Source of the DNA: Thermodesulfobacteriota bacterium
GTDB taxonomy: Bacteria > Desulfobacterota > Anaeroferrophillalia > Anaeroferrophillales > Tharpellaceae
Assembly: GCA_024762675.1 (NCBI GenBank)
Contig: JANTGZ010000002.1
Location: forward strand, 1-63,117
Direction: 5' to 3'
DNA length: 63,117 nt
The notes under the pieces: model-generated
Databases searched by the model: none
Told to the model about the DNA's origin: nothing
Seen by the model: only the letters and a program-made list of their open reading frames with translations
Part shown: in pieces, positions 4,645 through 42,048 of the stretch
Layout: each line of letters begins with the position of its first letter
Position numbering within the stretch: the stretch's first letter is position 1
Translations under genes and position numbers: made by a program

Positions 4645-4653
4645 GGTGTTTTT

Positions 4654-6938: not shown

Positions 6939-6939
6939 A

Positions 6940-10894: not shown

Positions 10895-10904
10895 ATGGTC
10901 AACT

Positions 10905-13095: not shown

Positions 13096-13135
13096 AATTA
13101 ATCAGGATAATAAAATTTTTTAACAGGGAAGTGAT

Positions 13136-14515: not shown

Positions 14516-14554
14516 ACGTAGCCTGCTTTAGGGTTTAAAGAGGTTTGTTTTGAG

Positions 14555-14869: not shown

Positions 14870-14876
14870 GCTGCTC

Positions 14877-15791: not shown

Positions 15792-15803
15792 CCAAGAGAG
15801 GTA

Positions 15804-16736: not shown

Positions 16737-17628
16737 TAAGAGTAAGCGGCGTGTACGGATTAGCAATAGTCGTAAAGATGTCCGGCGTGCCCGTCGTCCG
16801 AATTCCAAGAGTGTTAACCGTAAACTCTTGTTGTTTTTGGCGTTTGCTTGTCTTTGCGGGCTTGGTAGTGGAGCTTTGTGGCTCTGGTGGCCGACACTCG
16901 TAACCAGTGTCGATGGATGGTTCAAAGGGCGGGACGGATTTCTGGTCAAAGAGGTTATCGTACAGGGTAACTTTCGCAGCTCCCGTCAGGATATAATTAA
17001 GGCCCTGGGCCTGGCCCCACGGCAATTGATCTTTACCTTTGATCTCAAGCAAGTCCAGAATCGGGTGAATGCCCTGCCTTTTGTCAGGGAGACCCAGATT
17101 CATCGGCGCTGGCCTGACCGTCTTGAAATTATGGTAACAGAACGCCGCCCCAAAGCTCTTTTCTATCTTGACGAACTTTACCTGGTCGATCGGGATGGGG
17201 GGTTGATTGCTCCGGCACCCAAAAATGAGATGCTCGATTTTCCACTCATCAGCGGAGCTTCGGTGACCCAGTGGCAAAATCAACCGGAGGTCTGGATTAG
17301 GTTGTTGAAAAAAGCTCTTACTCTACTCTCTATATGGGAGAAAAGGGGCCGGGATTGGCCCGAAAAAGTTGCCCAGGTTGGGCTTGATGAGGTTTGCGGG
17401 GTAACTGTTTTTACCACCGATAAGGCCTGGGAGTTGCAATTGGGATTAGAGGGTTTTGACGAGCGTCTTAAGCGTTGGCGGCAGGTCTTAGAGGTGCTCG
17501 GGGAGAGAGCGATGGCAGTAAGTTATTTTGATTGTGCCGGGACCGATACGGTAGTGGCCGGCCTTAGGCCGCATCCCAAGGGTACTTTTTCTGAGAAGCT
17601 CAGAGCGCAAACAGATGGCGTCGATTAG
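16708..17628 (+). CDS. ftsQ: Cell division protein FtsQ
   Basis: Basic N-terminus, one TM helix, then POTRA-like VKEVIVQGNFRSSRQDI. Position between ddl and ftsA fits FtsQ. The start (GTG 16708, overlapping ddl) is uncertain. Confidence 0.75.
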   Translation: MPVLILPRSDKSKRRVRISNSRKDVRRARRPNSKSVNRKLLLFLAFACLCGLGSGALWLWWPTLVTSVDGWFKGRDGFLVKEVIVQGNFRSSRQDIIKALGLAPRQLIFTFDLKQVQNRVNALPFVRETQIHRRWPDRLEIMVTERRPKALFYLDELYLVDRDGGLIAPAPKNEMLDFPLISGASVTQWQNQPEVWIRLLKKALTLLSIWEKRGRDWPEKVAQVGLDEVCGVTVFTTDKAWELQLGLEGFDERLKRWRQVLEVLGERAMAVSYFDCAGTDTVVAGLRPHPKGTFSEKLRAQTDGVD

Positions 17629-17641
17629 AAGGCGGAGAAAC

Positions 17642-18871: not shown

Positions 18872-18954
18872 GCGAACTACAAATATGTATTAAGTTTTCA
18901 GGTATTTATTTAGGGCGTGATGGCATCTTTAGGGGCAAGAAGGGGGAGAGAACG

Positions 18955-20220
18955 ATGACATTTGAATTTGAAGAGAGTGGAAGTCTGGCGGCTGATATCA
19001 AGGTGATCGGAGTTGGCGGCGGTGGTGGCAATGCGGTTGACAATATGATTATGTCGGGCTTGGAAGGGGTTGGTTTTATCGTTGCGAATACTGATGCACA
19101 AGATCTTAATGCATCGCAGGCACCGTTCCGGATACAGCTTGGCAGTCGTATGACCAAAGGTTTAGGAGCTGGTGCCAATCCTGATACCGGACGCAGTGCG
19201 GCTTTAGAGGATGCGGAACAAGTTTCTGAACTCATTGCCGGAGCCGATATGGTTTTTGTGACAGCCGGTATGGGTGGGGGCACGGGAACCGGAGGGGCGC
19301 CGGTGGTTGCCCAGTTGGCTCGAGAGGCCGGAGCGTTGGTGATTGGCGTGGCGACCAAGCCTTTTAGTTTTGAAGGTAAAAAGAAGATGCGGGTTGCCGA
19401 AGAGGGGCTGGAAAAATTGCGGGAAAATGTTGATGCACTGATAACAATTCCCAATCAACGTCTGCTCAATACGGTCTGCAAAGAGACGACGGCCGTTGAT
19501 GCCTTTAAGAAGGCTGATGATGTGCTGCTTCAGGCGGTGCGCAGTATCTCGGACCTGATTAATGTGCATGGTCAGATAAACCTCGATTTTCAGGATGTCA
19601 AAACGGTTATGGGTAACACCGGTATGGCTCTTATGGGAACCGGCATGGCGAGCGGTGAAAATCGTGCCTTGGAGGCGGCCCAGAAGGCGATCGCATCACC
19701 GTTATTGGAAGATTTGAGTATTCAGGGAGCCCGCGGGGTAATCATTAATATTGCAGCAGCAACCGAGGTGACTCTGCATGAGATCAGTGAAGCCGCCACC
19801 CTGATTCAAGAGGAGTCGGATGAAGATGCCGAGGTTATCTGGGGGGTCGTACTCGATGATTCATTGGGTGAAAATCTTCGAGTTACGGTGATTGCAACAG
19901 GTTTTGACTCGGGACAGCGAACCGTTTCGTCAGTAGCCAAGGGGCCGGGTCTCGGGTTGGCCGGCAAATATCCGATCGGTACCCGGCGTGATAACCTTGA
20001 TCGTCCCGCATTTCAGGCGCGTCAGGAAGAGACTGCATCTTTTGAGAATAAATATGAAGCGGTCGATTGTGACCGGACGGCAAACCATATGACACCTGTT
20101 GATGACATTCAGGATCTTCCGCAGATGATGAAGAAGGTCGTGGGCTCCTCTGAAGGTGAGTTTGCGGGCGGGGTGGATGATTATGATATTCCGGCATTTA
20201 TCCGCCGTCAGTTAGACTGA
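18955..20220 (+). CDS. ftsZ: Cell division GTPase FtsZ
   Basis: GVGGGGGNAV, tubulin signature GMGGGTGTGGAPV, NTDAQDL, and the C-terminal conserved peptide DIPAFIRRQ. Strong GGGGAG Shine-Dalgarno sequence. Confidence 0.97.
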   Translation: MTFEFEESGSLAADIKVIGVGGGGGNAVDNMIMSGLEGVGFIVANTDAQDLNASQAPFRIQLGSRMTKGLGAGANPDTGRSAALEDAEQVSELIAGADMVFVTAGMGGGTGTGGAPVVAQLAREAGALVIGVATKPFSFEGKKKMRVAEEGLEKLRENVDALITIPNQRLLNTVCKETTAVDAFKKADDVLLQAVRSISDLINVHGQINLDFQDVKTVMGNTGMALMGTGMASGENRALEAAQKAIASPLLEDLSIQGARGVIINIAAATEVTLHEISEAATLIQEESDEDAEVIWGVVLDDSLGENLRVTVIATGFDSGQRTVSSVAKGPGLGLAGKYPIGTRRDNLDRPAFQARQEETASFENKYEAVDCDRTANHMTPVDDIQDLPQMMKKVVGSSEGEFAGGVDDYDIPAFIRRQLD

Positions 20221-22641: not shown

Positions 22642-25600
22642 ATGTCGCGCACATTATCTCTTATCATTTTCTTGGTTCTGGTTTTGGCCGTCGCTAAGGC
22701 TCAGGCTTTCGACTTAAGCTCTTCAAGTATCAAGATCAAAAACCCACCACCGATCCACTTAAGCCATCAGGCTTTTGATCTGCTCGATATTGCTCGTCTG
22801 CCTCTTGCTCCTGGGGTCCAGCAGATTGGGGTTATTGACGATCTTGTTAAACGTCTCGGTGATTACCTGGCCGGTGCCGGTCATGAAGTTTTAGGAACCT
22901 CCGGTATCGCTGCTAAACCTTTGGCCGCTGACGGCTCGATTAAGTACGCCTACGGCAACTGGATGGTCAAAACGGCTGAATCAACCGGGATCCGACTGCT
23001 CGAAGTCAGAATCAGTGAACTTGAGGAGATTATTCTTGAAAAAGCCCCGTTGGCGGCGGCAGGGCTCCCTTTTCGTTTTATCATCATGCCGGATACTTTT
23101 TACGGTCAGACCTTTATCCACATCTGCCTGGTCGACCCCCTCCTCTTTACTTCGCAATTTGTCAACTGTGATTCAAGCTTGCAAGAAACTTTGATTAGAT
23201 CCCGTCAACTTCTCTGCGGCTATGTCCGCAAGGCTTTCCCCGAAGCTTTTTACGATCCTCAACTTCCGCTCTACGATCCACCTGTCGTCGGTTTGCCGGT
23301 TCTGAACCGGGTCGCTCAGGTTGATGTTGGTGACAATCAATATTTCACTACCTTGGAAGATGTCGTCAGCGCCGTCCAGAAAGGTGGTGTCACCCTTTTT
23401 TCCGAGACTCCGGATGAACATCCCTATACGGTCAATGGCACTTTTGCTGATTACACATATCTTGACGATGAAAAGAGTTCTTTTTCAGGTGTCCTCTCTT
23501 TCCCTCTCTTTTCAATGATCAAGGATGGCTGGAAAAAAATAGATGGCGTTAAAACTTTTTTCCCAGAATGGAAACTGCAAAACCACTCACCGGCTATCGA
23601 GGCGTTGATTCAACAAAGTTTCATTCATGTTTACGGCTCCAGCTCCGTTGATCCACAGCAGCGTTTGAAATTTACTACCGCCGCCGGACCGATCTACTCT
23701 CTTCAGGTTTTTGATGCCTACACCAATCCTTTGCTGCTTCATTCCGGACTCTGGCACTATCAGGCTTTACCAACCACCATCCTCTTTCATGAAGCTACTC
23801 CCGGGCTTGTCGATATCTGGATTCAGGATCCGGCTGCCACCACCATCCGTTACTATGCCGATGTCAGTGATGTGTTGCTGGCTTCTTTCAAGGAAGCCTG
23901 GGACGCCAACCCCAGCAACAAAACCGATTGGCCTGCATGGGGTAAAGTTGCAATGGCAGAGCATAGTCGCGATAACCTGATCCGGGTAATTAAAAATTCC
24001 GTGGCCCCCCGTGTTGATCAAGGAGTGTTGCTGAGCCCGGAAAGCTTGGTCCGAAAACTTGATGACCCTGATGTTAGAGTAATTGACGCCCGTAGTGTTG
24101 GCTACGAATCCGGCCATATTCTAAAAGCGATCTCCCTGCCTCATACAGAAATCTCCGATGCCGGTATGAATCTGAAGACTGTCGCTGAACTTGAAGAGCT
24201 TTTGACCAGTAAAGGGATTCATCAAGCCCAGACCATCGTGATCTACGATGGCGGCAGCAAAGATCTTGGTGCTGCCGCCCGTCTCTTCTGGATGTTTGAG
24301 TATCTTGGCTGCGAGAATGTTCATCTTCTGGATGGCGGCTGGCAAGGCTGGTTGGATAATGAACTTCCTTCTGAAATCGTAACCCCGGAACCGTCTTTAA
24401 ACACTTCACCGTTCCAGGCTAACCTACGCCCCGAAGTTGTGACAACCGGTATGGGTTTGAGCCGACAACGGGAAGATAACTATATTGCCATTGTTGACTG
24501 TCGCAGCGACGAAGAGTACAATGGCTGGGTTCTGAACGGAGAGGCGTTGGGCGGCCATATCGCCAGCGCTCTCCATCTGCCCTATAGCTGGCTCTTTCGC
24601 GATGAGCACCATCTTCAGGATTACGGGACCCTGAAAGACCTTTTCTCGAGTAAAGGGTTGGTCTCAGATAGTCCCATAACTGTCTACTCCAGTGCCGGGA
24701 TTCAGAGTTCTATGACCTATTTTGCTTTGCGTCTGCTTGGTTACCAGAATATTGCCAACTACGATGGCTCTTACCTGGAGTGGAGCGGTTTCAGTTATTT
24801 CGATCCCGTAAACTTTCCGATCGAAAAATTACAGAATTATAACCGTCTGGTCAATCCTCAATGGGTACAAGATGAGTTATTGATAAATAATAATAACGGA
24901 CACCCCTTTCTCATCGTTGATACAGGCTGGGGGCCGGCTGGTGACGCCTATCTTGAAGCCCATATTCCCGGTGCCATCCATGTTAACACTGATGAGATTG
25001 AGTATGATGATTTTTATGCGCGCAACGATCCGCCGGCCGATATCTGGTTCGGACGCAGTACGACCGCTGAAGAGGATTTCGCCAAAGGTTTAACCGGCGA
25101 TGACACTTTGCCGAAAAACTACTGGAATATCTATCCCTATCACTATCTCCTGCCGGCAATTGCTAATATGGGGATTACGACCGAGACCACAGTTGTTGTT
25201 TACGGTGCTGATGTTACCGCCGCCGCCCGCGTGATCTGGACCCTGATGTACGCCGGAGTCGAAGATGTGCGCTTGCTCAACGGAGGTCTCAAAGCTTGGC
25301 AGCAAGCTGGGTATGATACTGAAAGCGGTCTGATTCCGCATTCACCGGTGGCCTGGTTTGGCAGTGATGAGCCGTTGCACCCGGAATATCTGGTCGATAC
25401 CGAATATATTGGCGAGGTTGTCGCCGGGGTACATTCTGACGCCGTTATCGCTGATATTCGTACTTGGGATGAGTATATAGGGGCAACCGCCCCTTACTCA
25501 TATATTCCCACCGACGGCCGTATCGAAGGCGCTCTCTGGGGTCATTCCGGTGAGGGCCCCTGGAGCATGGAGGAGTATGTTGACTTTGACGGTACTCTGC

Positions 25601-25836
25601 GCAGCTATACTGAAGTCGAGGAGATGTGGCACCAAGAGGGTATTACCGCCGATAAAAACGTCAGCCACTATTGCGGCACCGGTTGGCGCGCTGCCTTAAC
25701 CTTTCTCTACGGTTATATGATGGGTTGGGATCGGGTCAATCTCTACGACGGCGGCTGGTACGAATGGAGTTTGGGCGATAACGCGGCAGATAATCCGATT
25801 ATCGACGACAGTCCGGGACTGCCGATCTACGATTGA
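22642..25836 (+). CDS. Secreted 1064-aa protein: unknown ~450-aa N-domain plus four rhodanese domains
   Basis: Signal peptide (VLVLAVAKAQA). There are four rhodanese-like repeats. Only the last carries an active-site Cys loop (HYCGTGWRAAL). The equivalent loops of the others read DGGSKDLG, SSAGIQSS and GADVTAAA. Confidence 0.75.
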   Translation: MSRTLSLIIFLVLVLAVAKAQAFDLSSSSIKIKNPPPIHLSHQAFDLLDIARLPLAPGVQQIGVIDDLVKRLGDYLAGAGHEVLGTSGIAAKPLAADGSIKYAYGNWMVKTAESTGIRLLEVRISELEEIILEKAPLAAAGLPFRFIIMPDTFYGQTFIHICLVDPLLFTSQFVNCDSSLQETLIRSRQLLCGYVRKAFPEAFYDPQLPLYDPPVVGLPVLNRVAQVDVGDNQYFTTLEDVVSAVQKGGVTLFSETPDEHPYTVNGTFADYTYLDDEKSSFSGVLSFPLFSMIKDGWKKIDGVKTFFPEWKLQNHSPAIEALIQQSFIHVYGSSSVDPQQRLKFTTAAGPIYSLQVFDAYTNPLLLHSGLWHYQALPTTILFHEATPGLVDIWIQDPAATTIRYYADVSDVLLASFKEAWDANPSNKTDWPAWGKVAMAEHSRDNLIRVIKNSVAPRVDQGVLLSPESLVRKLDDPDVRVIDARSVGYESGHILKAISLPHTEISDAGMNLKTVAELEELLTSKGIHQAQTIVIYDGGSKDLGAAARLFWMFEYLGCENVHLLDGGWQGWLDNELPSEIVTPEPSLNTSPFQANLRPEVVTTGMGLSRQREDNYIAIVDCRSDEEYNGWVLNGEALGGHIASALHLPYSWLFRDEHHLQDYGTLKDLFSSKGLVSDSPITVYSSAGIQSSMTYFALRLLGYQNIANYDGSYLEWSGFSYFDPVNFPIEKLQNYNRLVNPQWVQDELLINNNNGHPFLIVDTGWGPAGDAYLEAHIPGAIHVNTDEIEYDDFYARNDPPADIWFGRSTTAEEDFAKGLTGDDTLPKNYWNIYPYHYLLPAIANMGITTETTVVVYGADVTAAARVIWTLMYAGVEDVRLLNGGLKAWQQAGYDTESGLIPHSPVAWFGSDEPLHPEYLVDTEYIGEVVAGVHSDAVIADIRTWDEYIGATAPYSYIPTDGRIEGALWGHSGEGPWSMEEYVDFDGTLRSYTEVEEMWHQEGITADKNVSHYCGTGWRAALTFLYGYMMGWDRVNLYDGGWYEWSLGDNAADNPIIDDSPGLPIYD

Positions 25837-27421: not shown

Positions 27422-29080
27422 TCAGCTTGCACCATCCTGATTATGTTCTTGTATCAATTTCTTGAGACTTTCTTTCAGAGTATCGATTTCTTTACGCTGT
27501 TCTTCAAGCCTTCTCTGTTGTTCTTTCATCCCCTCCAGAAGAACCGGGATAAGCTGGATGTATTCAACCGATTTATAACCCTTGGCATCCGTGTTAACCA
27601 ACTCTGGCAGAACTTTTTCCACCTCCTGGGCGATAAATCCCAACTGGCGACCTTGAGCAAACCAACGATCAGGGAACTTATCCTTACGCCATTGAAAACT
27701 GACGCCCTCAAGTGCTTGAATTTTCTCTAGAGCATTTTCAATGGGATCTATCTCTTTTTTTAAACGGCGATCAGAAGGGCTGCTGATACTTGAAATTTCA
27801 AGCGTTCCATTAACCCGAAGTAAATCGTGGTCAAACTCTCCGTAGACAAGTGGCGTTAAAGTATTACTGTTATCAATATATAGCTTGTTTGAGCCTGTTT
27901 CATTCCCCCCAGCTAGATACCCAACAAAAACATTGCCAGCACCACTTGTATTGTTGTTCCCGGCAAACGCCCCTAAAAATGTGTTAAGTGATCCTGATGT
28001 GTTCTTGAGTCCGGCTTCGTGACCTAAGAAACAATTGTACATTGCGCCCGAAACTACTTTTCCAGCTCGGGAGCCAAGCAGTGTGTTGCCAAAATATGGA
28101 TGGTCCATCCCGGCTTCAAAACCCATGCAAACATTGTAAGATCCATCAGCAGAATCTCGGCCGGCATCGACACCGACATAGGTATTCCACTTTCCAGTAG
28201 TATTGTCATTGCCGGCCACCGCTCCGACGAAGGTATTACGATGTCCAGTAGTATTTTTTTCCCCGGCTTGTGCTCCAAGAAAAGTATTATAATCCCCGGT
28301 TATGTTATTTTGTCCTGATCCATCACCAATAAAAGTATTCAATTGTCCCGAAGTCGTTTTGTTCCCAGCACCATAACCAAAGAACGAATTGTAGAGTCCA
28401 CCAGAATTAACATCCAAAGAATCACCAGCATAAATGCCAAAAAAGGTATTATTAAAAGTCTCCCCTTCTATTGTTCCCCGGAGCAAGGGCGTGGTCTCAC
28501 TCTCCGTAGTCAAAACACCACTAACGTCAGTTTGTTGATTTTCAAAAAGATCATGCATTAAAGTAGTAAAAGTTAGTAGCCCAGAATCAGAAGTCATTTC
28601 ACCGGCATTGAAAGCCTTAATTTCGTCTGATAAAGCCTTGTCAAAAAGACCGATTGTCTGAGCTGGATCTATCTTGAAAAAAGCTCCTTGCGACCAAGGC
28701 CCGACACCCAGTTCATCATAGGCCTGCACGTACCAGACGTATGTATTACCGGACTTCAGGCCGGTATCAACTGAACCGGGTATCCAAGTCGTGGCGGGTG
28801 CAGGAATAAGCGCCTGTAAAACCGGTTCAGACTGAACCTGCATCTCATCGTAACTGATGAAATTCTCATCTTCCACCTGAAAAATCCTGATTTTATATCC
28901 CTGAGTATCACTATCTGCCGACCAGCTGAAAGTAGGTCGGCAACTTTCGCAGACAGCCACACCTTCGGACAAAACCGGTGAGACAGGTATTACTTCTGCA
29001 GAACTTGCTGAAATGGTTCCTGAAAAGCAAAATATCAACAATAAACAAAACATTTTGAAACTGTAGATTCGATATCTCAT
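27422..29080 (-). CDS. Secreted tail-fibre-domain protein with C-terminal S74 intramolecular-chaperone domain
   Basis: 552 aa with a signal peptide and an Fn3-like N-domain. Many NTF.G..AG..NT.G-type repeats. C-terminal SDRRLKKEIDPIENALEKIQALEGVSFQW...GFIAQEVEKVLPELV is typical of the endosialidase-chaperone (peptidase S74) domain, followed by a coiled coil. Confidence 0.75.
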   Translation of the reverse strand: MRYRIYSFKMFCLLLIFCFSGTISASSAEVIPVSPVLSEGVAVCESCRPTFSWSADSDTQGYKIRIFQVEDENFISYDEMQVQSEPVLQALIPAPATTWIPGSVDTGLKSGNTYVWYVQAYDELGVGPWSQGAFFKIDPAQTIGLFDKALSDEIKAFNAGEMTSDSGLLTFTTLMHDLFENQQTDVSGVLTTESETTPLLRGTIEGETFNNTFFGIYAGDSLDVNSGGLYNSFFGYGAGNKTTSGQLNTFIGDGSGQNNITGDYNTFLGAQAGEKNTTGHRNTFVGAVAGNDNTTGKWNTYVGVDAGRDSADGSYNVCMGFEAGMDHPYFGNTLLGSRAGKVVSGAMYNCFLGHEAGLKNTSGSLNTFLGAFAGNNNTSGAGNVFVGYLAGGNETGSNKLYIDNSNTLTPLVYGEFDHDLLRVNGTLEISSISSPSDRRLKKEIDPIENALEKIQALEGVSFQWRKDKFPDRWFAQGRQLGFIAQEVEKVLPELVNTDAKGYKSVEYIQLIPVLLEGMKEQQRRLEEQRKEIDTLKESLKKLIQEHNQDGAS

Positions 29081-29182: not shown

Positions 29183-29291
29183 ACAAAAAAAGACAACCAA
29201 GCTGCTCTTTAAAATAAGCAACTCGGCTGTCTTTGATGCTTTTAGAAACAAGACCCGTGGTTTTCCGACCCTGCCTTTCGACAAGTGTGGC
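29183..29291 (-). ncRNA. Structured RNA element B1 (GEMM-I-like features, ends in an intrinsic terminator)
   Basis: Minus strand: GCCACACTTGTCGAAAGGCAGGGTCGGAAAACCACGGGTCTTG...AAAGACAGCCGAGTTGC...GCAGCTTGGTTGTCTTTTTTTGTG. It has a GAAA-tetraloop hairpin (29270-29285) and a ~17-bp terminator stem (29188-29234) followed by a T7 run. It is a paralogue of B2, with compensatory changes in the tetraloop stem. Confidence 0.55.
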
Positions 29292-29356
29292 TTTTTCAGT
29301 TATTCATTTGATTCTACATACAATCATTAGGCATAAAGCAGTATAAAAAGCAATGC

Positions 29357-29810: not shown

Positions 29811-30110
29811 TTAATGCAAGCGACTATGCCACTTTTGGGGATCTTTTGCAGTATGAAAAACACTATAAATTGTTACTTTTTCATCTAGATGTTCGTAGAA
29901 TATAGCATAAGGAAATCGCCTCAACAATGCTCGGCGGTATTCTTCATGAACCTTCACGTAAATCTCTGGCGTACGAATTATTGCTTGAATACAAGCTTCC
30001 ATACAAGACAAAAACTCCTCCCCCAAACCAGGACGTCGTTCCTCATACCAGGAATATGCCTCATCAATATCCCGCTTTACCTCAGGAGCTATTATTAAAT
30101 CAACGGCCAT
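29811..30110 (-). CDS. Type II toxin, ParE/RelE family
   Basis: ~99 aa from ATG 30110: MAVDLIIAPEVKRDIDEAYSWYEE...RRFPYAIFYEHLDEKVTIYSVFH. It overlaps the upstream antitoxin gene by 11 nt. Confidence 0.8.
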   Translation of the reverse strand: MAVDLIIAPEVKRDIDEAYSWYEERRPGLGEEFLSCMEACIQAIIRTPEIYVKVHEEYRRALLRRFPYAIFYEHLDEKVTIYSVFHTAKDPQKWHSRLH

Positions 30111-30330
30111 AACGACTACGAACCTGACGCTTAACTTCATCCCATGAAAGATTCGACGCCGTGCTCTTCATCAAGTTGGATTTTCGTCTTGCCAGTTCTT
30201 TTTTTTGCCACTCATGCACTGGTACTGATGAAGGGTTAGCTGCCAAATCATCCCACAGATCTTCAACTAATTGAAGTTTTTCAGGCGGGCTCAAATCAAA
30301 AATTGATATAGTATTTAAATTCATTTTCAC
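30100..30330 (-). CDS. Type II antitoxin (putative addiction-module component, Unstab_antitox-like)
   Basis: 76 aa. LSPPEKLQLVEDLWDDLAANP...WQKKELARR...W.EVK pattern. Its position directly upstream of the ParE/RelE gene fits an antitoxin. Confidence 0.7.
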   Translation of the reverse strand: MKMNLNTISIFDLSPPEKLQLVEDLWDDLAANPSSVPVHEWQKKELARRKSNLMKSTASNLSWDEVKRQVRSRYGR

Positions 30331-30492: not shown

Positions 30493-30602
30493 ACAAAAAA
30501 AGACAGCTAAGCTGCTCTTTATTAAAGAGGCAACCCGGCTGTCTTTTAGGTTTTGGAGACAAGACCCGTGGCTTTCCGACCCCGTCTTTCGGCGGGAGTG
30601 GC
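30493..30602 (-). ncRNA. Structured RNA element B2 (paralogue of B1, ends in an intrinsic terminator)
   Basis: Minus strand: GCCACTCCCGCCGAAAGACGGGGTCGGAAAGCCACGGGTCTTGTCTCC...AAAAGACAGCCGGGTTGCCTCTTTAATAAAGAGCAGCTTAGCTGTCTTTTTTTGTG. Tetraloop hairpin at 30581-30596; terminator at 30498-30546 plus a T7 run. A possible promoter lies just upstream: TTGTGC, 17 nt, TAGATA. Confidence 0.55.
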
Positions 30603-30660
30603 GTTTACAATTATCTAAGATAGCCACTTTATAAGCACAAGCAACAACTCTTAGCAACAC

Positions 30661-30854: not shown

Positions 30855-31778
30855 TTATCGCTGGTTAACCGGTAGTTCAGGTAACGTAGCCCATTCCCAG
30901 AAGCCGTTGTCATAATTTTCAACTTCTGGATAACCGAGCCAGTGCAAGACAAACCAGGCGAAACCGGAACGGATACCTCCGGTGCAGTAGGGTACGATCA
31001 GTTTCCCTCCGGCTTGCTCCGGCAGGGGCAGGCCGGCCTTTGTGAGTCGGGACCGTAACTCCTCCCTCGATTTAAGTGTGTAATTATCATTCCATAAATC
31101 TTGCCAGTGGAGGTGCAGAGCTCCTGGCAGATGGCCGCCGCGCTGTTCGCGATAGAGTATCTCCCCTTCATATTCAGCCCGGGTGCGAACATCTAAAAAG
31201 ATGAGATTATTCTTTTGATGGCGGGATTGGAGGTCAGTGGCACCCAAATAGGCTTGTTGCAGTTTGTCAATGGCCAAGTGTTGCATGTTCGAAGCTTTAC
31301 AGGCTTCCATATGGTTGGCAAAGAGGGCACCGGTTGGTCCCGAGATATGCTGCCAGCGATCATAGCCGCCATCAAGCAGGGCGATTTTGCTGAAGCCCAG
31401 TTTTTTCAGTATCCAGAAAAGACGTCCTTCTGCACCCCAGGCGTCGCGGTCGCCATAAACTACCACGCTTAGATCCGGGCAGAGACCCTTTTTTCTCAAT
31501 ACATTTACAATTTCGTCAGGATCTCGCAAAGAGCAGGGAACTTTCCCAGACTGGTGAACTAGAGGTCCACTACAGCCGGCATCAAGGTGGACTGCCCCCT
31601 TGATATGGCCTTTGCGGTAGGCTAAGGCATTGCGGGTATCAACTATGACCAGGTTGGGTTTATTGAGTCGGGTCAGCAGTGTTTCAGCTGACCAAAGCTG
31701 TGGAATATTTCCAGCCCGAGCGGAAAAAGGTAACAGGCAGCACGATAGAAAAAGAGTTATAGATATGATATTGGACAT
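30855..31778 (-). CDS. Secreted two-domain rhodanese (thiosulfate/3-mercaptopyruvate sulfurtransferase-like)
   Basis: 307 aa with a signal peptide (ITLFLSCCLLPFSARA). The first domain is inactive (VVYGDRDAWGAE). The second has a catalytic loop PYCTGGIRSG. Confidence 0.8.
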   Translation of the reverse strand: MSNIISITLFLSCCLLPFSARAGNIPQLWSAETLLTRLNKPNLVIVDTRNALAYRKGHIKGAVHLDAGCSGPLVHQSGKVPCSLRDPDEIVNVLRKKGLCPDLSVVVYGDRDAWGAEGRLFWILKKLGFSKIALLDGGYDRWQHISGPTGALFANHMEACKASNMQHLAIDKLQQAYLGATDLQSRHQKNNLIFLDVRTRAEYEGEILYREQRGGHLPGALHLHWQDLWNDNYTLKSREELRSRLTKAGLPLPEQAGGKLIVPYCTGGIRSGFAWFVLHWLGYPEVENYDNGFWEWATLPELPVNQR

Positions 31779-35605: not shown

Positions 35606-38600
35606 CTATTTTAGAAAAGCTCCCCAGAGGTCATAAAGCAACTCGTTGCCGCCACCGGCCCCCTGTTCAACTGCAACATATTCACCCGCTTCATAGACTT
35701 TTATCAGAACGTAGCCGCCCTGATAACCAACTACTTCAGCTTCGCGATCAAACTTGTAGAAAGTATCATCCTCACCCATACTCCAGATCTCTGGTTCTGT
35801 TCCAGCAAATGGCAGCCGGAGAATTGAGCCGAGTTCGCATTCATGTGCGTACTCATACTGCAGAGGATGAGCGATTGCAAACCCTCGTCCTTCAAGATAA
35901 ACGCTTTCATCACTGCCAACCGTAAAGCCGCAGGCTTGAAGGTGGTTTTTAAGCTCGGCTGGGACATAAAAATACATTTTATCCATCCATGGGCCGTTAA
36001 CTACCTGTTTGATATATTCGGCATTTTGTTCCGAATGAGTCAACAGATTGGGGTCAATGTCTGGAATTTGATTGCCTATGACTGAACCTTCACCCGCCAT
36101 TTTAAAGAGCTCTTCAGCATGATGATGGCTTAATTTAAGAACCTCATCAGCCCTGGCACCCAGGAAACGCAACCCATTGGCTTCCATTGGTTTAAGATAG
36201 TCAATTTCACCATCGACGACAAACAAACCGTCGGGGTTTGCCATCTCCATCATGCCGCTATCATGGCTGTAGCGCATGAAGCGATTCTCTTCAGTAAACC
36301 ATGGTGGTGACCATGGCATAAACATAATATTTCGGTCGGTTACGCGGTGGGCTCCGGCCGAAGTTGCGGAATCACCATGACAATCATTACATGATTTTGA
36401 ACCTAAGGCCTTTTCCGCAGGCTTAATACCATGGCTGTCAGAGAAATAATGCGCAGCGATAAATAGTACCGGATGGGGATCACTCTCGCCTTCGGCCTTT
36501 AGTACGGTTGTTAAAGCAGCTTGTACAGCTCTGACATCCTCATCCCACCAGATATCGGGAAACATATCTCCGGTATGATCGAAGAGGACATAACCGCTAT
36601 CTTTCAAAACAACGCGTCCGATATTGGGGTTTTCGGCCCAGGTTGGATCGTTAGGTGGAATCATAGCCATTTCCATGGGTGAAACCACGCCCAATTGAAT
36701 TGGTCGTTTATATGTTTTTATAGCTGCATTGAGTTCCTTTACATAGAGAACCTTTGCCCCACCATATGGGAGATCCGACATGTCGGCGTCTGGTTGAGGG
36801 TTAACATCGACCCAGGTCATGACTGTAATCGGGTTCCCGATTACGACTTGGGGGTAGCCATTAATACCGCTGGCATAATATAAGGGTGGAAAGTTCAAGT
36901 TGGGTTGCTGCGGATCATAGTCGAGCGGCACACCCATTTGCTTGTAGCCTTCGTAGCTGACCTGGAGAAAATAGTTCCAGAAATCAAATTTAAAATTGGT
37001 CGGCATGCCATTGACTAAACGACCGGGATCAGCTTCACCGTCCATGTTGAAGTAATTGACCATCTGGGAGACAAAATCCATCGATTGGACTCCCTTACCA
37101 TCGGCGTCAATTTGCTGGCTGACCATGTTGAAATGAGGAATTCCGTAACCCGGGGAAGTACCGTAAACCGGTTGCAGTGCGTATGGAGGTCCAGGAAAGG
37201 CCATTCCCTTACCGTCACCGACAACCCCGGCGACCTGATCAGCAAGGACATTATAGCCCATCAGGTTGTCAAAATTGGTGTAGTATCCCAGCGTATCATC
37301 AAAGGTTCTAAAGCGCCAGGTTTTGCGATAAGGGGAATGGCAGGCTTGACAGGAGACTACGGCCAGGTGACGTCCGGTAGTTTCCCCAAAAGTCTCTTCA
37401 TGTTTAGCTATGGGGCTTGGTGCATTGGCATCTTCTCCAGCCAGGTGACAGCCTTCACAACTTTTGGGGCGGGGGTTGGCATCAAGATCATTACGAACCA
37501 TATGGGCCGTATCGACTCCTTTGAGAAAATTATGTTTATCTTCTTTGCTGCCGCTTGCGCGCAAATGGCAGGTACCGCAACCTATTTTCTGACTCGACAT
37601 ATGGACATCATAGCCCATTGCTTCAGGGTCGTCTGTAAAGTTAACGTAGTTGCCATTTTTTACCCAGTCCGCCGGCATGCCCAGCATATAGGTCCGGCCT
37701 CGGGTCCATTCACTGTTGCCATGATCCTTAGTCATGACATGGCACTGGCCGCAAACTTTGACCCATTTAGAACTGTTAATGTCGTTCTGGCCACCAAACA
37801 TTTCAGCAATGGGGATGGCACCATTACTGTCAAGGTCACTGGTGTTATAATAAGCTTTAGGTTGCCATTCATCACCGTCACGGTCAATCGTTATATATGT
37901 TGCAGGTGAGCCGTCATGGTCAAAATCAAGGCCCATGAGACCGGCTGTCGGCACCATATCAAAAAAGCTGGGTAAAAGATCGTGTAGCGTGGGGCTCACC
38001 TTGCCTTCTGGAATGGCACCTTCTTGAATATCTTTAATTACCAGGGAGAGATCAACCTGTCCGGTGTCGGGGTTGATATATGTAGTATCACCCTGCATGA
38101 ACAAGCCCATGGCGTATATGGAGCCACTGTATTCCTCACCGACCTTCCCAGTGTAGGGTATACCTTCCCCTTCAATTACACCGACTCGGATAAAATCACG
38201 CACAGAAGCATCACAGCTATCCCAGTTGCTATAGAACTTACCCGGCTCATAGGCTCGCAAACCGTAAGGCACCGGCAGAAACATATTACTGCCCGGCATA
38301 TTGAACTTAATCTGGTAAGCAAAAACAAAATCGTTGAACATAAAGCCCATCAGCATGTTCATGTCACCTTCTGACGGCATCAGGCCTTTGTCCTTGAAAT
38401 ATTGGAGAAAACCCGTAAAAAATTGTTCCAGAGCTGCTTGGGATGCCTGTAGACGACTCATCTCATCGGCAACACCATTGGGGTTGCCGCAATATTCCGC
38501 CCTCAACATACCCGTTGCCGGGTCCCAGATTTTAGGTACATTCTGGCCATACAGAGCGTAAGGCAGTGGAACGCCGCTGTCTTCAATCTGCTTAAGGCCA

Positions 38601-39634
38601 TCAACCCACATCTGCATCATTTCACCAACGATTTCCTTGGGTAGTTGGGCCATCGCCATAAATGGGGTTGGTCGACCCATGCGTTGGGGGCCATCGGTAT
38701 AATTCATGGCCGTGCTGTTTTCAAGGCCAACTTTGGTGGGCATGCCGAAAGAGATTTTTTCAATTTTCTGAGTCTGTGGGTTTCGATCAGCGAAAATCAT
38801 CATCCGTGGTCGAAAGGGTTGAACTTTAAGACCATCAGCAGCCTGGTAAGTATAACTGCTGTCGGGGTCGATATGGCAAAGTAGACAGTCGGCTTCCATG
38901 ACACCGGATTTACTCCAGTCATGGGGGCGGGGCTCGCCGATTAAGGCCATAGTTTCATCAATGGTCTCTGCACCATATAAGGCTTTGACGAGATCATTGG
39001 AGTCGTAGCCGTAGAAGTCACGGTCATAGGTGTGCAGAGGGGATAATGTTTCATCTGTGAAAGGAGTTACTGTGTTATCATCGTTGACAACTCCTTCAAC
39101 CGGGCCGCCGCCGGGATGGCAGGAGTAACATGTAGCCATATGGTCGGCGGTTCCGATATCAAAGAAATAGGGTTTTCCTTCAGATGTGAAAGAAGCATCC
39201 TTGCTGCCGCGAACCCCTTTTGCCGCCAACTGGCGGTAAGAGGGGGGTCACCATGCTCCAAACTGGCCCGGACTCAAAAGATGGCCATAGGCATGGGTAA
39301 GATATTTCTGCAGGTTATTATCTTTATTTTCACTGACCCAGGTATCGCTGGCGCCGCCATTAACTCCAGGGGTTGTCCCTTCGCGAAAATGATAGGCTTT
39401 AGTGATTGAGTTGTAATCATGACACTTGCCGCAGGTCTGTTTAGGACTGTAGGCGGGCCCCTGTTTGTAGATAGCACCGCTGGCAGCAGTCGTTGTATCG
39501 TTATCATTTAACTGGTCAATAATGCGGTTGCCTTGTGTGTCGTAAAGGACTACCGGGGGATGGGCTGCCGTCGCCAGTAAGGGGGTAAGGGCCAACAGTA
39601 AGGCTCCCAGGATAAGGGTTTTGACTTTTCTCAT
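35606..39634 (-). CDS. Very large secreted multihaem c-type cytochrome; one reading frame with a single in-frame UGA at 39250-39248
   Basis: ORF 39634-39248 has a signal peptide plus CGKCH. ORF 39229-35606 has 7 CXXCH motifs: CYSCH, CLLCH, CGQCH, CGTCH, CEGCH, CQACH and CNDCH. The two are in the same frame, separated only by TGA plus six sense codons (PPSYRQ). The downstream ORF has a TTG start, no Shine-Dalgarno sequence and no signal peptide. The alternative readings are two separate genes or a pseudogene. Confidence 0.55.
39214..39245 (-). promoter_or_regulatory. SECIS-like hairpin downstream of the in-frame UGA
   Basis: Minus strand: UGA CC CCCCUCUU A CCGCC AGUU GGCGG C AAAAGGGG. The upper stem CCGCC/GGCGG starts 11 nt after the UGA. 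The apical loop AGUU contains GU. The lower stem is CCCCUCUU/AAAAGGGG with one mismatch. Confidence 0.45.
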
Positions 39635-39698
39635 TGAACTACCTCCAAAGGATAGAGAAATATTTTAAAAGTTAAATAATTCGTTAGGTTTATTTTTG

Positions 39699-40598
39699 TT
39701 ATTTGCGTAAAATTATGCCTTTGTGGCATTGCATGCACTCTCCCGTTTCATGGCAGACGTTACAGCTGCGGAAATTACGTCGAGCGGCTTCTCCATGTCC
39801 ATTATCACGTTGATAGGAGATCCAATCACCACGGAAATGAGAGACCGGTTTCTGGTGTTTATGGCAATCGACGCAATAACCGGCTGAATGACAGGTGGCA
39901 CAGGTGCGGCGATCATGGGTCGCCTCAACCCCGTGACCGGTTGTTTTCCAGCCAAAGTTGTGATCCCTTGGCTTTTCAGTCTCGTGACATTTCTCGCAGA
40001 AAGCTTGGCGATTGGGATGGCAATAGCCACAAGAAGTTGAGAGGCGGCTGGCAAAGCCATGTTTTGTTTCCCAGTCCTGGTTATGGCTTTCAGGGGCTTG
40101 CTCGGCTCTGATTTCACTATGACAGGCTTCGCAATCGGTTGGTCCTTCCTGTTTTTTGTGACATTTTAGACAGAGTCCCATCTTCGGGCCGTTTTCCAGG
40201 CCGCGCTCCTTATTGAGCGATTGATGGCATGAGTAACAGGTAATATCACTGTGTACTTCATGATTGAAGATTAGGTCGGCAAAGCTCTTAGGTTTAACAC
40301 TTTTCTCAATCTCATAATCCTTGTCGGCGCTTTCCGGGGAATGGCAGAGAAGGCACTCATCAGAAGGTTCATCAAGGTTTATTTCGTGACATTCCTGGCA
40401 ATCTGCCATCGTGGCGGCGGCAAAATTCCCCTCAGCATCTTTTTGATGACATTGGTCGCAGGTAGCTTCCTGCTCCATTATATGGAAACGGTGACTGAAT
40501 TTAAGACCTACTGAAGTTTTACAGGCTCCGAGAACCAGAGCCCCAAGGGCGATTGCAGCAAGTCCGACCCAGAATAATTTTCTTTTTTGCTTACTCAT
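39699..40598 (-). CDS. Dodecahaem c-type cytochrome (periplasmic, possibly lipid-anchored)
   Basis: 12 CXXCH motifs in ~299 aa. N-terminus MSKQKRKLFWVGLAAIALGALVLGAC is a signal peptide with a possible lipobox. ATG 40598 is preferred to TTG 40667. Confidence 0.85.
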   Translation of the reverse strand: MSKQKRKLFWVGLAAIALGALVLGACKTSVGLKFSHRFHIMEQEATCDQCHQKDAEGNFAAATMADCQECHEINLDEPSDECLLCHSPESADKDYEIEKSVKPKSFADLIFNHEVHSDITCYSCHQSLNKERGLENGPKMGLCLKCHKKQEGPTDCEACHSEIRAEQAPESHNQDWETKHGFASRLSTSCGYCHPNRQAFCEKCHETEKPRDHNFGWKTTGHGVEATHDRRTCATCHSAGYCVDCHKHQKPVSHFRGDWISYQRDNGHGEAARRNFRSCNVCHETGECMQCHKGIILRK

Positions 40599-40650
40599 AG
40601 AAATAGCCTGTTTAGTAAGGTTGTTAGTAGCTTGAAGATCTCTTCCCGCA

Positions 40651-42048
40651 TTAGAAATTGAGGTCAAGGGTGATTGTTAGAGAGTTGATGTAGTCAACCC
40701 CGAGCTCATCTTCATAGAAATCATCTTGCGCGTATTCATAGGCGAATTCGATCCGTGAGTGGTCACAGAGTCGGTAGGCGACCGCTGCCCGATAGCTGGT
40801 TGAGGCTTCATCTTCGAGGAGGCTGTTGACATCTTCAGTTTTATGGTAGTAGCCGGCTTCAAGTTCCAATTTATGAAATAACTCCTGCTCCAGGTCAACA
40901 AACCAGGAGGTCGACTCAGCTTCGTAAAACTTATCCCGATCCTCCCACCATTGACTGATTCCGGCACTGCAACGAAATCCTTGCCAGCCGAAACATTGAT
41001 CGAGGTCAAAGCCCGCGGTAACCCTTTCAAAATCGGTGTTGTAGAGATTTTCGTCTTCACCATGAGCGAGACTGCGGTTAGTATAGCGACCGAATAGGGT
41101 AAGTCCCTTGATTATAGAGATTGGCTGGCTGATGCGAATGTCAAACTCAAGATAGCCTTGCTCCTGCATAAGATAGAGGCGGTTCATCTCAGAACTTAAG
41201 GCTTCATCCAGGGTATAACTGAAGTCAAAAAGGAAATCGGCATCCGAGGCGATGGCGTAACGGCGGTAGAATGAAAAGTCGAGAACCGTGCCGGTGGCAG
41301 CGATTGTGGTTTCGAGGCCGCTTTCGAAAAAACGGGTATGGTCATTGATAAAGGCGATGCGGCTGCGGAATTTCCAGAGGTCAGAAGGTTGCCAGTAGAT
41401 TGATGATTCCCATGAGGTCTCTTCAAAGATCACGGCATTTACATCAAGTGCCAGTCCCGGTAGGGGACGGACTCTTAAGTTGGCTCCGCCAACCCCGTCG
41501 GGTCCGAGGTCGCTGTAATGCTGGACCGCGAGGCCGCCAAAAACTTCGATTTCCATACCCATCCATTGAGGCCGGTCATAATGTGCCCAGATCCCGTCTA
41601 ACTGTACGGTTTCAGCCCCATAAGCATATTGGCGACCAGCTCTTATGGTAAGATCGTCAGTAAAAAGCCCAGTTTTTTCCAGGTAAGCGTAGTAGCATTC
41701 GAAATCCTGGCGATGACTACCACGGCTGTCGGTATAATCCTGGAAAATCGAGCCCTGACGAGTGCCGTCCAGATCTTTGGCATAGGTGGCCATCGAAAAG
41801 AAGGTCAGTCCTAAGCTTTGCCAGTTGGCATCAATCGCCAGGGTCTCAAAGATATCCTGATCCTGGTCCTCATCGACAGTCATAAAGCTTGCCGGACTGT
41901 CTGACCATTGCAGTCGATATTCTGTGGTACTTCTGATTGAGATATCGGCCCCGCCTAATTCCAGTGCAAATCCGGATGTTGTCAGCAGGCAACATCCCAA
42001 TATCAGCCCGGTCCCAAGCTTCAGTTTTCGCCATTGTAATCCAGCCAT
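40651..42048 (-). CDS. Outer-membrane beta-barrel (porin-like) protein of a porin-cytochrome cluster
   Basis: 465 aa. Signal peptide, many alternating Y/F/W-rich strands, and a C-terminal ...ITLDLNF. It is the first gene of the cytochrome operon. Confidence 0.65.
   Translation of the reverse strand: MAGLQWRKLKLGTGLILGCCLLTTSGFALELGGADISIRSTTEYRLQWSDSPASFMTVDEDQDQDIFETLAIDANWQSLGLTFFSMATYAKDLDGTRQGSIFQDYTDSRGSHRQDFECYYAYLEKTGLFTDDLTIRAGRQYAYGAETVQLDGIWAHYDRPQWMGMEIEVFGGLAVQHYSDLGPDGVGGANLRVRPLPGLALDVNAVIFEETSWESSIYWQPSDLWKFRSRIAFINDHTRFFESGLETTIAATGTVLDFSFYRRYAIASDADFLFDFSYTLDEALSSEMNRLYLMQEQGYLEFDIRISQPISIIKGLTLFGRYTNRSLAHGEDENLYNTDFERVTAGFDLDQCFGWQGFRCSAGISQWWEDRDKFYEAESTSWFVDLEQELFHKLELEAGYYHKTEDVNSLLEDEASTSYRAAVAYRLCDHSRIEFAYEYAQDDFYEDELGVDYINSLTITLDLNF

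Follow-up and report, generated by a model that had tools for sequence, protein, structure and literature searches.

Does the in-frame UGA at this locus end a small cytochrome, or does it encode a residue within one large gene? On the minus strand of the window, the 63,117-nucleotide stretch of a Thermodesulfobacteriota contig analysed here, two open reading frames share a single frame: a 128-aa ORF (39634-39248) with a signal peptide, one CGKCH motif and a stop at TGA 39250-39248, and a 1207-aa ORF that runs from a TTG at 39229 to 35606 and contains seven CXXCH motifs. Only six sense codons, encoding PPSYRQ, separate the TGA from the TTG, and the joined product (128 + 1 + 6 + 1207) comprises 1342 aa, with CXXCH motifs at residues 68, 169, 250, 628, 686, 726, 762 and 1082. 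A scan of the window for in-frame TGA codons between long open stretches left the TGA at 39250 as the only case after adjacent genes and antisense noise were discarded. For the 128-aa ORF, signal peptide cleavage is predicted between MRKVKTLILGALLLALTPLLATAA and HPP. We sought a purine-rich Shine-Dalgarno sequence upstream of the TTG at 39229 (CCCTCTTACCGCCAG-TTG) and found none, and the N-terminus beginning there (LAAKGVRGSKDASF...) is not a signal peptide. The preliminary description had reported both the shared frame of the two ORFs, with TGA plus six codons between them, and the missing Shine-Dalgarno sequence and signal peptide of the downstream TTG, and our inspection agrees on each count. 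The features of the locus are collected in Table 1.

Table 1. Features of the cytochrome locus, in window coordinates and in order of transcription.
Feature	Position	Strand	Remarks
First operon gene, 465-aa secreted protein	40651..42048	minus	C-terminus ...TLDLNF; conserved in 41 loci
12-CXXCH lipoprotein cytochrome, upstream partner	39699..40667	minus	Directly upstream in 43 loci
Shine-Dalgarno GGAGG	39642..39646	minus	7 nt 5' of ATG 39634; read from sequence
Complete gene of the proposed selenocysteine cytochrome	35606..39634	minus	1342 codons including UGA; eight CXXCH
Signal peptide MRKVKTLILGALLLALTPLLATAA, signal-peptidase I type	39563..39634	minus	Similar N-terminus in homologues with upstream DNA available
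Haem motif 1, CGKCH, residues 68-72	39419..39433	minus	Invariant in 47/47 joined sequences
In-frame UGA, proposed selenocysteine codon, residue 129	39248..39250	minus	TGA in 58/58 stop-containing loci
SECIS-like hairpin	39214..39247	minus	Upper stem-loop CCGCC-AGUU-GGCGG at 39236-39223, 11 nt after UGA
Protein part after the proposed selenocysteine, haem motifs 2-8	35606..39247	minus	Separate ~1200-aa protein in GenBank records

On the comparative sequence evidence, we consider it very probable that the two ORFs are one gene, and that a single polypeptide is made from it through selenocysteine (Sec) recoding of the UGA. Among homologous loci of Desulfobacterota, every one of the 58 that contain a stop has TGA at the identical codon, and neither TAA nor TAG occurs at this position. 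The residues on both sides of the TGA are near-identical (...SPGQ[FY]GAW-U-PPSYRQ[LV]AAK), at an overall protein identity of 48-89%, and the single frame is kept in these 58 loci as well as in three loci with a sense codon. Aligned to the UGA is Cys in two loci, L057 (TGT) and L060 (TGC), which share the junction W-C-PVSFRQLAA, and in the distant protein P0157, whose junction reads W-C-SPAPLYRQLAAK; a search with the Cys-form junction as query returned three proteins. Residues other than Cys or Sec also occur, namely Leu in P0068 and L058 (CTG), Asp in P0146 and Gln in P0085, and position 129 is therefore dispensable in some relatives. Outside the 16 motif cysteines, residue 129 is the sole conserved Cys/Sec position (46 of 47 sequences). 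In these alignments, MAFFT misplaced the N-terminal fragments once more than ~20 full-length sequences of the downstream part were included. Homologues encoded as two independent genes were also looked for, and in ~58 loci none has a separate start and a signal peptide of its own for the second part, which leaves the reading of a continuous gene standing.

The hairpin that had been described 3' of the UGA folds as proposed, with an invariant upper stem flanked by a variable lower stem (UGA-CCCCCCUCUUA-CCGCC-AGUU-GGCGG-C-AAAAGGGG). Taken alone, the hairpin of the window is unremarkable, with a z-score of -1.6 and 15 of 200 shuffled sequences folding equally well; its significance derives from the comparison with homologues rather than from the single sequence. 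The homologous hairpins follow the consensus CCGCC-AGKU-GGCGG, in which the apical loop is AGUU or AGGU, and synonymous sites within them are fixed: TAC, CAG, KTG and GCG each occur in 57 of 57 sequences, while the Arg codon is CGC in 53 and CGT in four, the latter keeping a G-U pair. A control Tyr/Phe column nearby contains seven TAC and 19 TAT, in contrast to the invariant Tyr codon of the hairpin; likewise, a control Arg column elsewhere uses six different codons, and an upstream Ala column is mixed where the hairpin has only GCG. Across the homologues, 86% of cells are paired, and sliding the partners lowers this figure to 30-56%. As the upper stem does not change, the alignment shows modest covariation; at the pair 12-38 we counted 33 CG, nine UA and five UG. 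Scored with a covariance model of the hairpin, every TGA locus reaches 55-84 bits; the Leu form L058 drops to 31 bits, and L057 and L060, which encode Cys, give no match. When the same model was used to look for further selenoprotein genes, only orthologous sites were matched. No Rfam SECIS family matched the hairpin; the coverage of bacterial SECIS elements in Rfam is poor. Codon 136, which lies in the hairpin loop, is always TTG or GTG, either of which is a possible start codon. A conserved UGA, aligned Cys homologues and a 3' stem-loop under selection, three sequence features of a UGA-Sec gene, are thus found in this family.

In the recoding that we propose, ribosomes would initiate at the ATG at 39634, and the hairpin located 11 nt past the UGA (39250-39248) would recruit SelB with Sec-tRNA(Sec), so that selenocysteine would be inserted as residue 129 and translation would continue to 35606. 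The 1342-aa product would then be exported by its lone N-terminal signal peptide, and eight c-type haems would be attached in the periplasm. Under selenium limitation, termination at the UGA may leave only the 128-aa fragment with one haem. The genes selA, selB, selC and selD are absent from the 63-kb window and from the locus flanks, and no tRNA-Sec was found in the window or in 70 locus flanks. Cultured relatives possess 8-15 selenoproteins each (Peng 2016 Table S2). In one carrier genome (L042), an MtrB/PioB gene located 3 kb from the homologue is interrupted by TGA, and the MtrB/PioB family beta-barrel is a listed selenoprotein family (Peng 2016; Zhang 2022).

Three other explanations of the UGA have to be weighed against recoding. 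That it is a nonsense mutation or a miscalled base in an ordinary cytochrome gene is what any in-frame stop in a single sequence might suggest, and one homologue (L070) does have an extra premature stop 159 codons downstream. The TGA, however, recurs at an identical position in 58 independent assemblies from several orders, strong purifying selection acts on both sides of it, and no lesions other than that of L070 are seen, so that a pseudogene or sequencing error is, on these sequences, effectively refuted. According to the GenBank records there are two genes, a short one for a one-haem cytochrome that ends at the UGA and a long one that starts independently at the TTG/GTG corresponding to 39229; the split appears in all public annotations examined (for example, the consecutive ENN66_00770/00775 and KAI46_10800/10805), and codon 136 is invariably a usable start. 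This arrangement is nevertheless very improbable, given that the TTG has no Shine-Dalgarno sequence and that the second part, whose seven CXXCH motifs need periplasmic haem attachment, lacks a signal peptide in ~58 loci; moreover, the PPSYRQ between TGA and KTG is invariant, and the Cys and Leu homologues are one uninterrupted ORF.

If the hairpin instead stimulated a near-cognate tRNA for Trp, Cys or Arg to read through the UGA, the same fusion protein would be made with no selenium. This model also predicts an in-frame TGA followed by a hairpin, and it agrees with the occurrence of Leu, Asp or Gln at position 129 in some relatives. Against it stand the pattern of TGA alone in all 58 loci and Cys in the divergent homologues, which is the classical signature of Sec, a hairpin whose 11-nt distance from the UGA is that of SelB-type elements and whose apical loop contains G-U, a host clade rich in selenoproteins, and the precedent of the cytochrome MccSep, in which Sec was proven by mass spectrometry. 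In addition, we know of no established bacterial mechanism for efficient read-through driven by a hairpin of this kind. We therefore regard read-through as improbable, if somewhat less so than the two-gene arrangement, and retain Sec recoding as the best explanation. The exported cytochrome of ~1342 aa with a recoded UGA, which the preliminary description had put forward, has thus gained the backing of a conserved TGA, Cys homologues, a constrained hairpin and a single signal peptide.

In the part of the protein that follows the proposed Sec, one region resembles MtrC/MtrF domain II/IV, and a beta-sandwich lies at the C-terminus. The first of these matched PF22113 with 39.7 bits, compared with a gathering cut-off of 30 (E = 4.8e-10). 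Matches to octahaem tetrathionate reductase (TIGR04315; 27.6 bits versus a cut-off of 375) and to the NrfH family lay far below their cut-offs and were rejected, and searches of the cytochrome for TIGR03507 and PF13435 gave no match. An AF2 model from PPSYRQ onward, built with 80 sequences, reached a mean pLDDT of 88.5, with values below 50 for its first nine residues; a Foldseek comparison of this model with the PDB returned nothing below E = 0.03 and no match to MtrC/OmcA. The model of a substring of the Leu form P0068 was poor, with a mean pLDDT of 57 and values of ~27 around the Sec position. Some homologues have C-terminal extensions of DUF1566 and Cys-rich repeats, which are typical of surface proteins.

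The cytochrome is encoded last in a three-gene operon, after a putative beta-barrel protein and a 12-haem lipoprotein cytochrome, and this order is kept in ~41 loci. The true start of the 12-haem cytochrome is likely Met24 at 40598, which gives a lipobox LGAC. A signal peptide and a terminal Phe, the two sequence features on which the assignment is based, suggest that the 465-aa protein is an outer-membrane beta-barrel; it matched no family, MtrB/PioB and other barrel families included. Together, these partners suggest a conduit that would comprise the putative barrel, the 12-haem lipoprotein cytochrome and, as its terminal redox subunit, the proposed Sec cytochrome, which would probably face outward. 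Neighbouring rhodanese, GT2 and Fer4 genes were considered as parts of the system and rejected, as homologues of the 307-aa rhodanese, GT2 and Fer4 proteins occur in none of the loci. The suggestion that the nearby rhodanese genes point to a sulfur- or selenium-handling context accordingly finds no footing in conservation; for the 1064-aa rhodanese protein there is one weak match among the loci (L017). The rhodaneses of the window remain an intriguing parallel to ExtH of Geobacter, a rhodanese encoded beside MccSep.

The carriers of the gene belong to Desulfobulbales, Dissulfuribacterales, Thermodesulfatator-like and related lineages, and come from vents, seeps and sulfidic caves. A cultured isolate, 'Thermodesulfobacteriota bacterium B35' (L029), appears to carry the gene as well. 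On the strength of the MccSep analogy and of these sulfur-cycling hydrothermal Desulfobacterota carriers, we tentatively suggest that Sec129 might act on sulfur, polysulfide or selenium substrates, either as a catalytic nucleophile or as a redox residue close to a haem, although we lean slightly against taking this as the actual role. A broader reading, which we hold to be rather unlikely, is that the protein could be the catalytic subunit of an unrecognised selenium-dependent machine spanning the outer membrane, in which a 12-haem cytochrome would feed, through a new type of barrel, a channel-facing or surface eight-haem selenoenzyme that would act on insoluble or polymeric chalcogens (S8, polysulfide, metal sulfides, selenium) in hydrothermal Desulfobacterota and would have arisen independently of MccSep. 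In such a machine, Sec itself would be the haem-proximal nucleophile or axial ligand, because there is no partner Cys. Sec-haem catalysis would in that case have arisen convergently in sulfur respiration or disproportionation. The enzymes that act on elemental sulfur and polysulfide in vents, seeps and sulfidic caves are poorly defined, and the operon is a concrete candidate.

In public records, at least ~60 genomes and ~100 protein clusters contain the gene in two pieces, a 'hypothetical protein' of ~130 aa and a protein of ~1200 aa annotated as 'hypothetical' or 'cytochrome c3 family', and the larger piece makes no sense as a stand-alone cytochrome because it lacks a signal peptide. To our knowledge, no haem selenoenzyme was known before the 2025 preprint and the 2026 paper on MccSep. 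A second family, which differs in architecture, lacks a partner Cys and has a probable outer-membrane setting, would indicate that the pairing of Sec with c-type haem is recurrent, and offers a different active-site design to study.

Comparison with known systems places these features in context. In SECIS elements of the E. coli fdhF type, the upper stem-loop starts 11 nt after the UGA. The present hairpin, a candidate SelB site, resembles them in lying within the coding sequence, in this 11-nt spacing, in the G-U of its apical loop and in a bulged base below the upper stem; its primary sequence, by contrast, is unrelated, and its bulged base is a 3'-side C. The operon resembles MtrCAB and other porin-cytochrome (Pcc, Ext) conduits in combining a barrel-like protein, here putative, with a periplasmic multihaem lipoprotein and a large cytochrome, the latter with its PF22113 match. 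Unlike in MtrCAB, the large cytochrome has eight haems rather than 10, carries a signal for signal-peptidase I in place of a lipobox and contains a proposed Sec residue, and no match links its 465-aa partner to the MtrB/PioB or other barrel families.

Predicted Sec-containing cytochromes and outer-membrane components of Desulfobacterota have been catalogued before, including 'Cytochrome c family protein 1' (pfam13435, WP_013164579.1), a predicted Sec protein (Peng 2016; Zhang 2022). This entry probably belongs to the MccSep family, as judged from the Desulfurivibrio alkaliphilus homologue named in the MccSep paper; our genome scan yielded no Desulfurivibrio locus of the present family. MccSep of Geobacter sulfurreducens (GSU2937-2936 / ExtKL) is a five-haem selenoenzyme that acts as a polysulfide reductase (Mihara et al., Sci Adv 2026, PMC13510729); its Sec was proven by mass spectrometry, and both its biochemistry and its structure (PDB 9wt8, 9wt9, 9wta, 9wtb and 9wtc) have been characterised (PMC13510729). 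The preliminary description was thus mistaken in supposing that a Sec-containing multihaem cytochrome would be undescribed, since MccSep is published (PMC13510729) and a 'cytochrome c family protein' has been listed as a selenoprotein since at least 2016. The published MccSep search dropped N-terminal fragments shorter than 200 aa (PMC13510729), and would therefore have missed the 128-aa fragments of the present family.

In several respects the two systems are alike: both are exported c-type multihaem proteins annotated as two ORFs, with an in-frame UGA between them and a SECIS-like hairpin downstream; both exist in Sec and Cys forms and occur mainly in sulfur-cycling Desulfobacterota; the outer-membrane barrel gene extI adjoins MccSep, and a putative barrel gene belongs to the operon here; and Pro follows Sec in each (D-G-U-P-T-P-N-R in MccSep, A-W-U-P-P-S-Y-R here). 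Profile A1 (downstream part, E<=1) and profile A4 (UGA-spanning, E<=10) did not match 9wt8 or 9wt9, both present in our copy of the PDB, and searching PDB sequences with A1 and A4 retrieved no relative. The cytochrome described here very probably represents a second haem-selenoenzyme family beside MccSep, with no detectable sequence relation to it in these comparisons. MccSep has ~450 aa and five haems, compared with 1342 aa and eight haems here, and its Sec lies at residue 325 in a C-terminal Ig-like domain, whereas the proposed Sec of the present protein is residue 129, near the N-terminus. MccSep also has a strictly conserved haem-ligating Cys239, while only residue 129 is conserved outside the haem motifs of the present family. 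Finally, MccSep is a periplasmic tetramer, whereas the operon partners of the present cytochrome suggest a complex that crosses the outer membrane.

The locus is organized as a single reading frame with a conserved UGA, the pairing of Sec with Cys, a constrained hairpin linked to the UGA and only one export signal, and it is part of a three-gene operon that is itself conserved. The two same-frame ORFs noted in the preliminary description, of 128 codons and 1207 aa, lie on either side of the TGA, and the PPSYRQ stretch encoded between the TGA and the TTG leaves the frame unchanged. Joined, they encode a protein of 1342 aa, the Sec cytochrome, with the UGA at residue 129 and eight CXXCH motifs at residues 68, 169, 250, 628, 686, 726, 762 and 1082; outside the 16 motif cysteines of the family, residue 129 is the only conserved Cys/Sec position. 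Attachment of c-type haem requires export. No Shine-Dalgarno sequence was found upstream of the TTG and no signal peptide in the sequence that follows it (LAAKGVRGSKD...), as had been described. The predicted mature N-terminus starts with His (His25) in many homologues, with AHPPV/AHPAV right after the cleavage site, and this residue could act as a ligand; Desulfobulbaceae-type homologues have Gly-rich N-termini, and His25 is not conserved among them.

Features of the Sec cytochrome gene and its surroundings in the window
Feature	Position	Strand	Remarks
Start ATG	39634	-	opens the 128-codon ORF
GGAGG before the ATG	39646-39642	-	read from the sequence
Signal peptide of the 128-codon ORF		-	typical; MRKVKTLILGALLLALTPLLATAA|HPP
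His25	39560-39562	-	
CGKCH haem motif	within the 128-codon ORF	-	single motif in that ORF
In-frame TGA	39250-39248	-	ends the 128-codon ORF
TTG	39229	-	taken as start by ORF finders; in frame, after PPSYRQ
Downstream stretch	39229 to 35606	-	1207 aa, seven CXXCH
Four-rhodanese-domain protein	22642-25836	+	1064 aa
Two-rhodanese-domain secreted protein	30855-31778	-	307 aa
Complete dcw cell-division/cell-wall cluster	3069-20220	+	mraZ, mraW, ftsI, murE, mraY, murD, ftsW, murG, murC, murB, ddl, ftsQ, ftsA, ftsZ
Two c-di-GMP-I-GGC riboswitch aptamers	30525-30611, 29213-29300	-	RF03167; each scores 64.7 bits, over the gathering score

With the joined sequence as query, a protein search retrieved 85 homologues (39-79% identity), nearly all of 1170-1210 aa and with a common starting point (LAAK, MAAK or MRGS), which implies that every one of them has an upstream stop. 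A genome scan of one genome per species yielded 70 loci, almost all in MAGs of Desulfobacterota, with Desulfobulbaceae, Desulfobulbia, Dissulfuribacterales, Thermodesulfatator, Desulfuromonadaceae, Ca. Tharpella aukensis and Desulfocapsa represented; one isolate, 'Thermodesulfobacteriota bacterium B35', makes experiments possible in a cultured carrier. The DNA upstream of each match was translated in the matching frame. Wherever such DNA was available it encodes the module with signal peptide and CGKCH, and in all but three loci, which have a sense codon, a stop follows at the identical codon (...SPGQ[FY]GAW-stop-PPSYRQ[LV]AAK...). The stop is TGA in 58 of 58 stop-containing loci, and never TAA or TAG. 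The exceptions carry Cys (TGT in L057 and TGC in L060, W-C-PVSFRQLAA) or Leu (CTG in L058, the same type as protein P0068). Cys is also found in P0157, a more distant fragment at 34% identity (GGSW-C-SPAPLYRQLAAK), and relatives beyond that distance have Asp (P0146) or Gln (P0085). At the level of sequence, TGA-only stops together with Cys homologues are the classical Sec/Cys signature.

In SelB-dependent insertion of Sec, the UGA is directly followed by a hairpin. The hairpin drawn in the preliminary description was reproduced on folding the window RNA (CCGCC-AGUU-GGCGG 11 nt after the UGA, above the lower stem CCCCUCUU/AAAAGGGG); by itself this fold is unremarkable (z = -1.6), so that the original observation was accurate yet not decisive alone. 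Across 57 sequences, synonymous sites 3' of the UGA are fixed. The Tyr codon is TAC in 57/57 (7 TAC and 19 TAT in a nearby Tyr/Phe column), the Arg codon is CGC in 53 and CGT, which keeps a G-U pair, in 4 (six codons in another Arg column), and the Ala codon is GCG in 57/57 (GCG 13, GCC 14 and GCA 29 three codons upstream); with no comparison column, Gln is CAG in 57/57, and Leu/Val is TTG in 45 and GTG in 12, never CTN or TTA. These fixed bases coincide exactly with an invariant upper stem-loop, CCGCC-AGKU-GGCGG, starting 11 nt after the UGA. The lower stem is variable (for example CUCUUA/UAAGAG, CUUCUUA/UAAGAAG, CUCCU/AGGAG), and some of its changes are compensatory; at pair 12-38, CG occurs 33 times, UA 9 times and UG 5 times, and pairing holds in 86% of cells overall, compared with 30-56% when the partners are slid. 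A covariance model of the element gave scores of 55-84 bits at all TGA loci and of about 31 bits at L058, the Leu form, and had no match in the Cys forms, where the sequence is TTC AGG CAG CTT GCT; the hairpin thus co-occurs with the UGA, as expected of a SECIS. No Rfam family matched the hairpin, a result that is weakly informative for bacterial SECIS elements.

Taken from these sequence patterns, recoding of the UGA as Sec in the cytochrome gene is very likely. Read-through of the UGA without Sec would join the same two ORFs, and appears improbable beside the Sec/Cys pairing and the hairpin that accompanies the UGA. Two independent genes is how databases present the locus: the N-terminal parts appear as 'hypothetical proteins' of ~130 aa in ~109 separate clusters, ending in ...GAW in every inspected sequence, and several GenBank records give the halves consecutive locus tags (ENN66_00770/00775, KAI46_10800/10805). 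The preliminary description had named two-gene homologues as one possible refutation; in no homologue does the second part have a start and signal peptide of its own, and separate genes are more improbable still. A lesion at the UGA, a codon shared by all stop-containing loci, is hardly credible. The gene is real, widely conserved, uniformly mis-annotated and a predicted selenoprotein.

Several homologues depart from this layout. A sub-family with an extra multihaem domain of ~540 aa fused N-terminally (L058, P0068, P0298, P0299) has a Sec form (P0298 and P0299, ending ...GAW) and a Leu form (P0068 and L058, CTG at L058:5980; GGW-L-PYPYRQ), whose degraded hairpin, still scoring 31.5 bits, suggests that Sec was lost recently. 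The Cys-form homologues L060 (3355-10311, 2319 codons) and L057 are much longer. At L070:5980-6459 a further stop ends the frame 159 codons past the TGA, and similarity to the large downstream part picks up at 6456; a frameshift, an assembly error or a true pseudogene would each account for this appearance. P0070, P0074, P0082 and P0083 have C-terminal extensions with DUF1566 (PF07603), and all of these except P0074 also have repeated Cys-rich 'CGVCDDDPTNDC' modules; DUF1566 and Cys-rich repeats are typical of cell-surface proteins.

The two genes directly upstream on the same strand keep their order in about 41-43 loci; neither lies upstream of the Cys forms L060 and L057. The first encodes a 465-aa secreted protein (C-terminus ...TLDLNF) with no family match, which we tentatively infer to be an outer-membrane beta-barrel, and the second a cytochrome with 12 CXXCH and a lipobox. 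This three-gene layout is similar to that of porin-cytochrome conduits, and the large protein matches PF22113 (MtrC/MtrF domain II/IV) above the Pfam cut-off. The Sec cytochrome probably works in an outer-membrane context. By analogy with MccSep, the multihaem cytochrome c selenoprotein of Geobacter, and given the sulfur-cycling, hydrothermal provenance of the carriers, it may be the terminal subunit of an envelope-spanning conduit, with Sec129 as its putative reactive centre, acting on sulfur, polysulfide or selenium; the specific catalytic role is somewhat less likely than not. In L042, ~1.25 kb downstream of the Sec-cytochrome homologue, an MtrB/PioB-family barrel gene (L042:10905-13286, plus strand; PF11854, E = 9e-10) is broken by an in-frame TGA (...SVALYGG-stop-GGHAFTDRVGSAC...) followed by 159 open codons and a weak hairpin; selenoprotein catalogues include an 'MtrB/PioB family beta-barrel' (PMC9312934).

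Among the window genes close to the operon, those for rhodanese, GT2 and Fer4 proteins had no clear homologue in the other loci, apart from one weak rhodanese match in L017. The nearby rhodanese genes had been read as a hint of sulfur/selenium handling; they are not conserved neighbours of the operon in other genomes. The remainder of the window is ordinary chromosome (dcw cluster, TRAP transporter, ABC transporter), and the complete dcw cluster places the window on the chromosome; sel genes and tRNA were not found in it. One riboswitch aptamer precedes the gene at 27422-29080, whose secreted product of 552 aa has a Peptidase_S74 domain ('chaperone of endosialidase'), and the other lies upstream of a region holding only a 109-aa ORF (29811-30140).

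The predicted structure of the window protein from PPSYRQ onward, obtained with 80 sequences, is confident (mean pLDDT 88.5, pTM 0.88), with helical and beta-rich domains between the haem-binding regions and a beta-sandwich at the C-terminus; the nine residues adjoining Sec have low confidence, and a model of the natural Leu form P0068 that spans the Sec position was poor in its vicinity. Foldseek gave no significant match of the PPSYRQ-onward model in the PDB, and sequence profiles found no solved relative there.

The preliminary description regarded a Sec-containing multihaem cytochrome as undescribed, a view overtaken by work on MccSep, which showed that GSU2937-2936 (ExtKL) of Geobacter make up a single protein (Mihara et al., Sci Adv 2026, preprint November 2025; PMC13510729). 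MccSep is a periplasmic tetramer with five haems, and the D-G-U-P loop that contains its Sec325 is next to a haem with His/Cys239 ligation; it reduces polysulfide, is required for S0 respiration, and has 637 homologues in five clades collected by its authors (PMC13510729). Possible joining of ExtK and ExtL by UGA was already noted in 2018, and their operon also includes the rhodanese lipoprotein ExtH and the barrel protein ExtI (2018); the window's rhodanese arrangement is reminiscent of ExtH, encoded beside MccSep. 'Cytochrome c family protein 1' is an entry of selenoprotein catalogues, recorded for 22 organisms. Between 8 and 15 selenoproteins are known per cultured member of the Desulfobulbaceae (Peng 2016). 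No description of the Sec cytochrome family was found in open-access papers and preprints; the MccSep pipeline discarded N-terminal fragments <200 aa (PMC13510729), which would exclude the 128-aa pieces of this family.

Membership of the MccSep family was rejected. Neither profile A1, made from the large downstream part, nor profile A4, which spans the UGA, matched the MccSep entries 9wt8 or 9wt9, both present in the searched PDB copy, and the Sec cytochrome differs from MccSep in haem number (8 versus 5), size (1342 versus about 450 aa) and Sec position (residue 129 versus 325), with no counterpart of Cys239. With no detectable sequence relation, an independent origin is suggested, though not proven. 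The Sec cytochrome very probably belongs to the multihaem cytochrome c selenoproteins, a kind known only since very recently, and is not categorically new; what is unusual is its design, with Sec near the N-terminus and the partner Cys absent.
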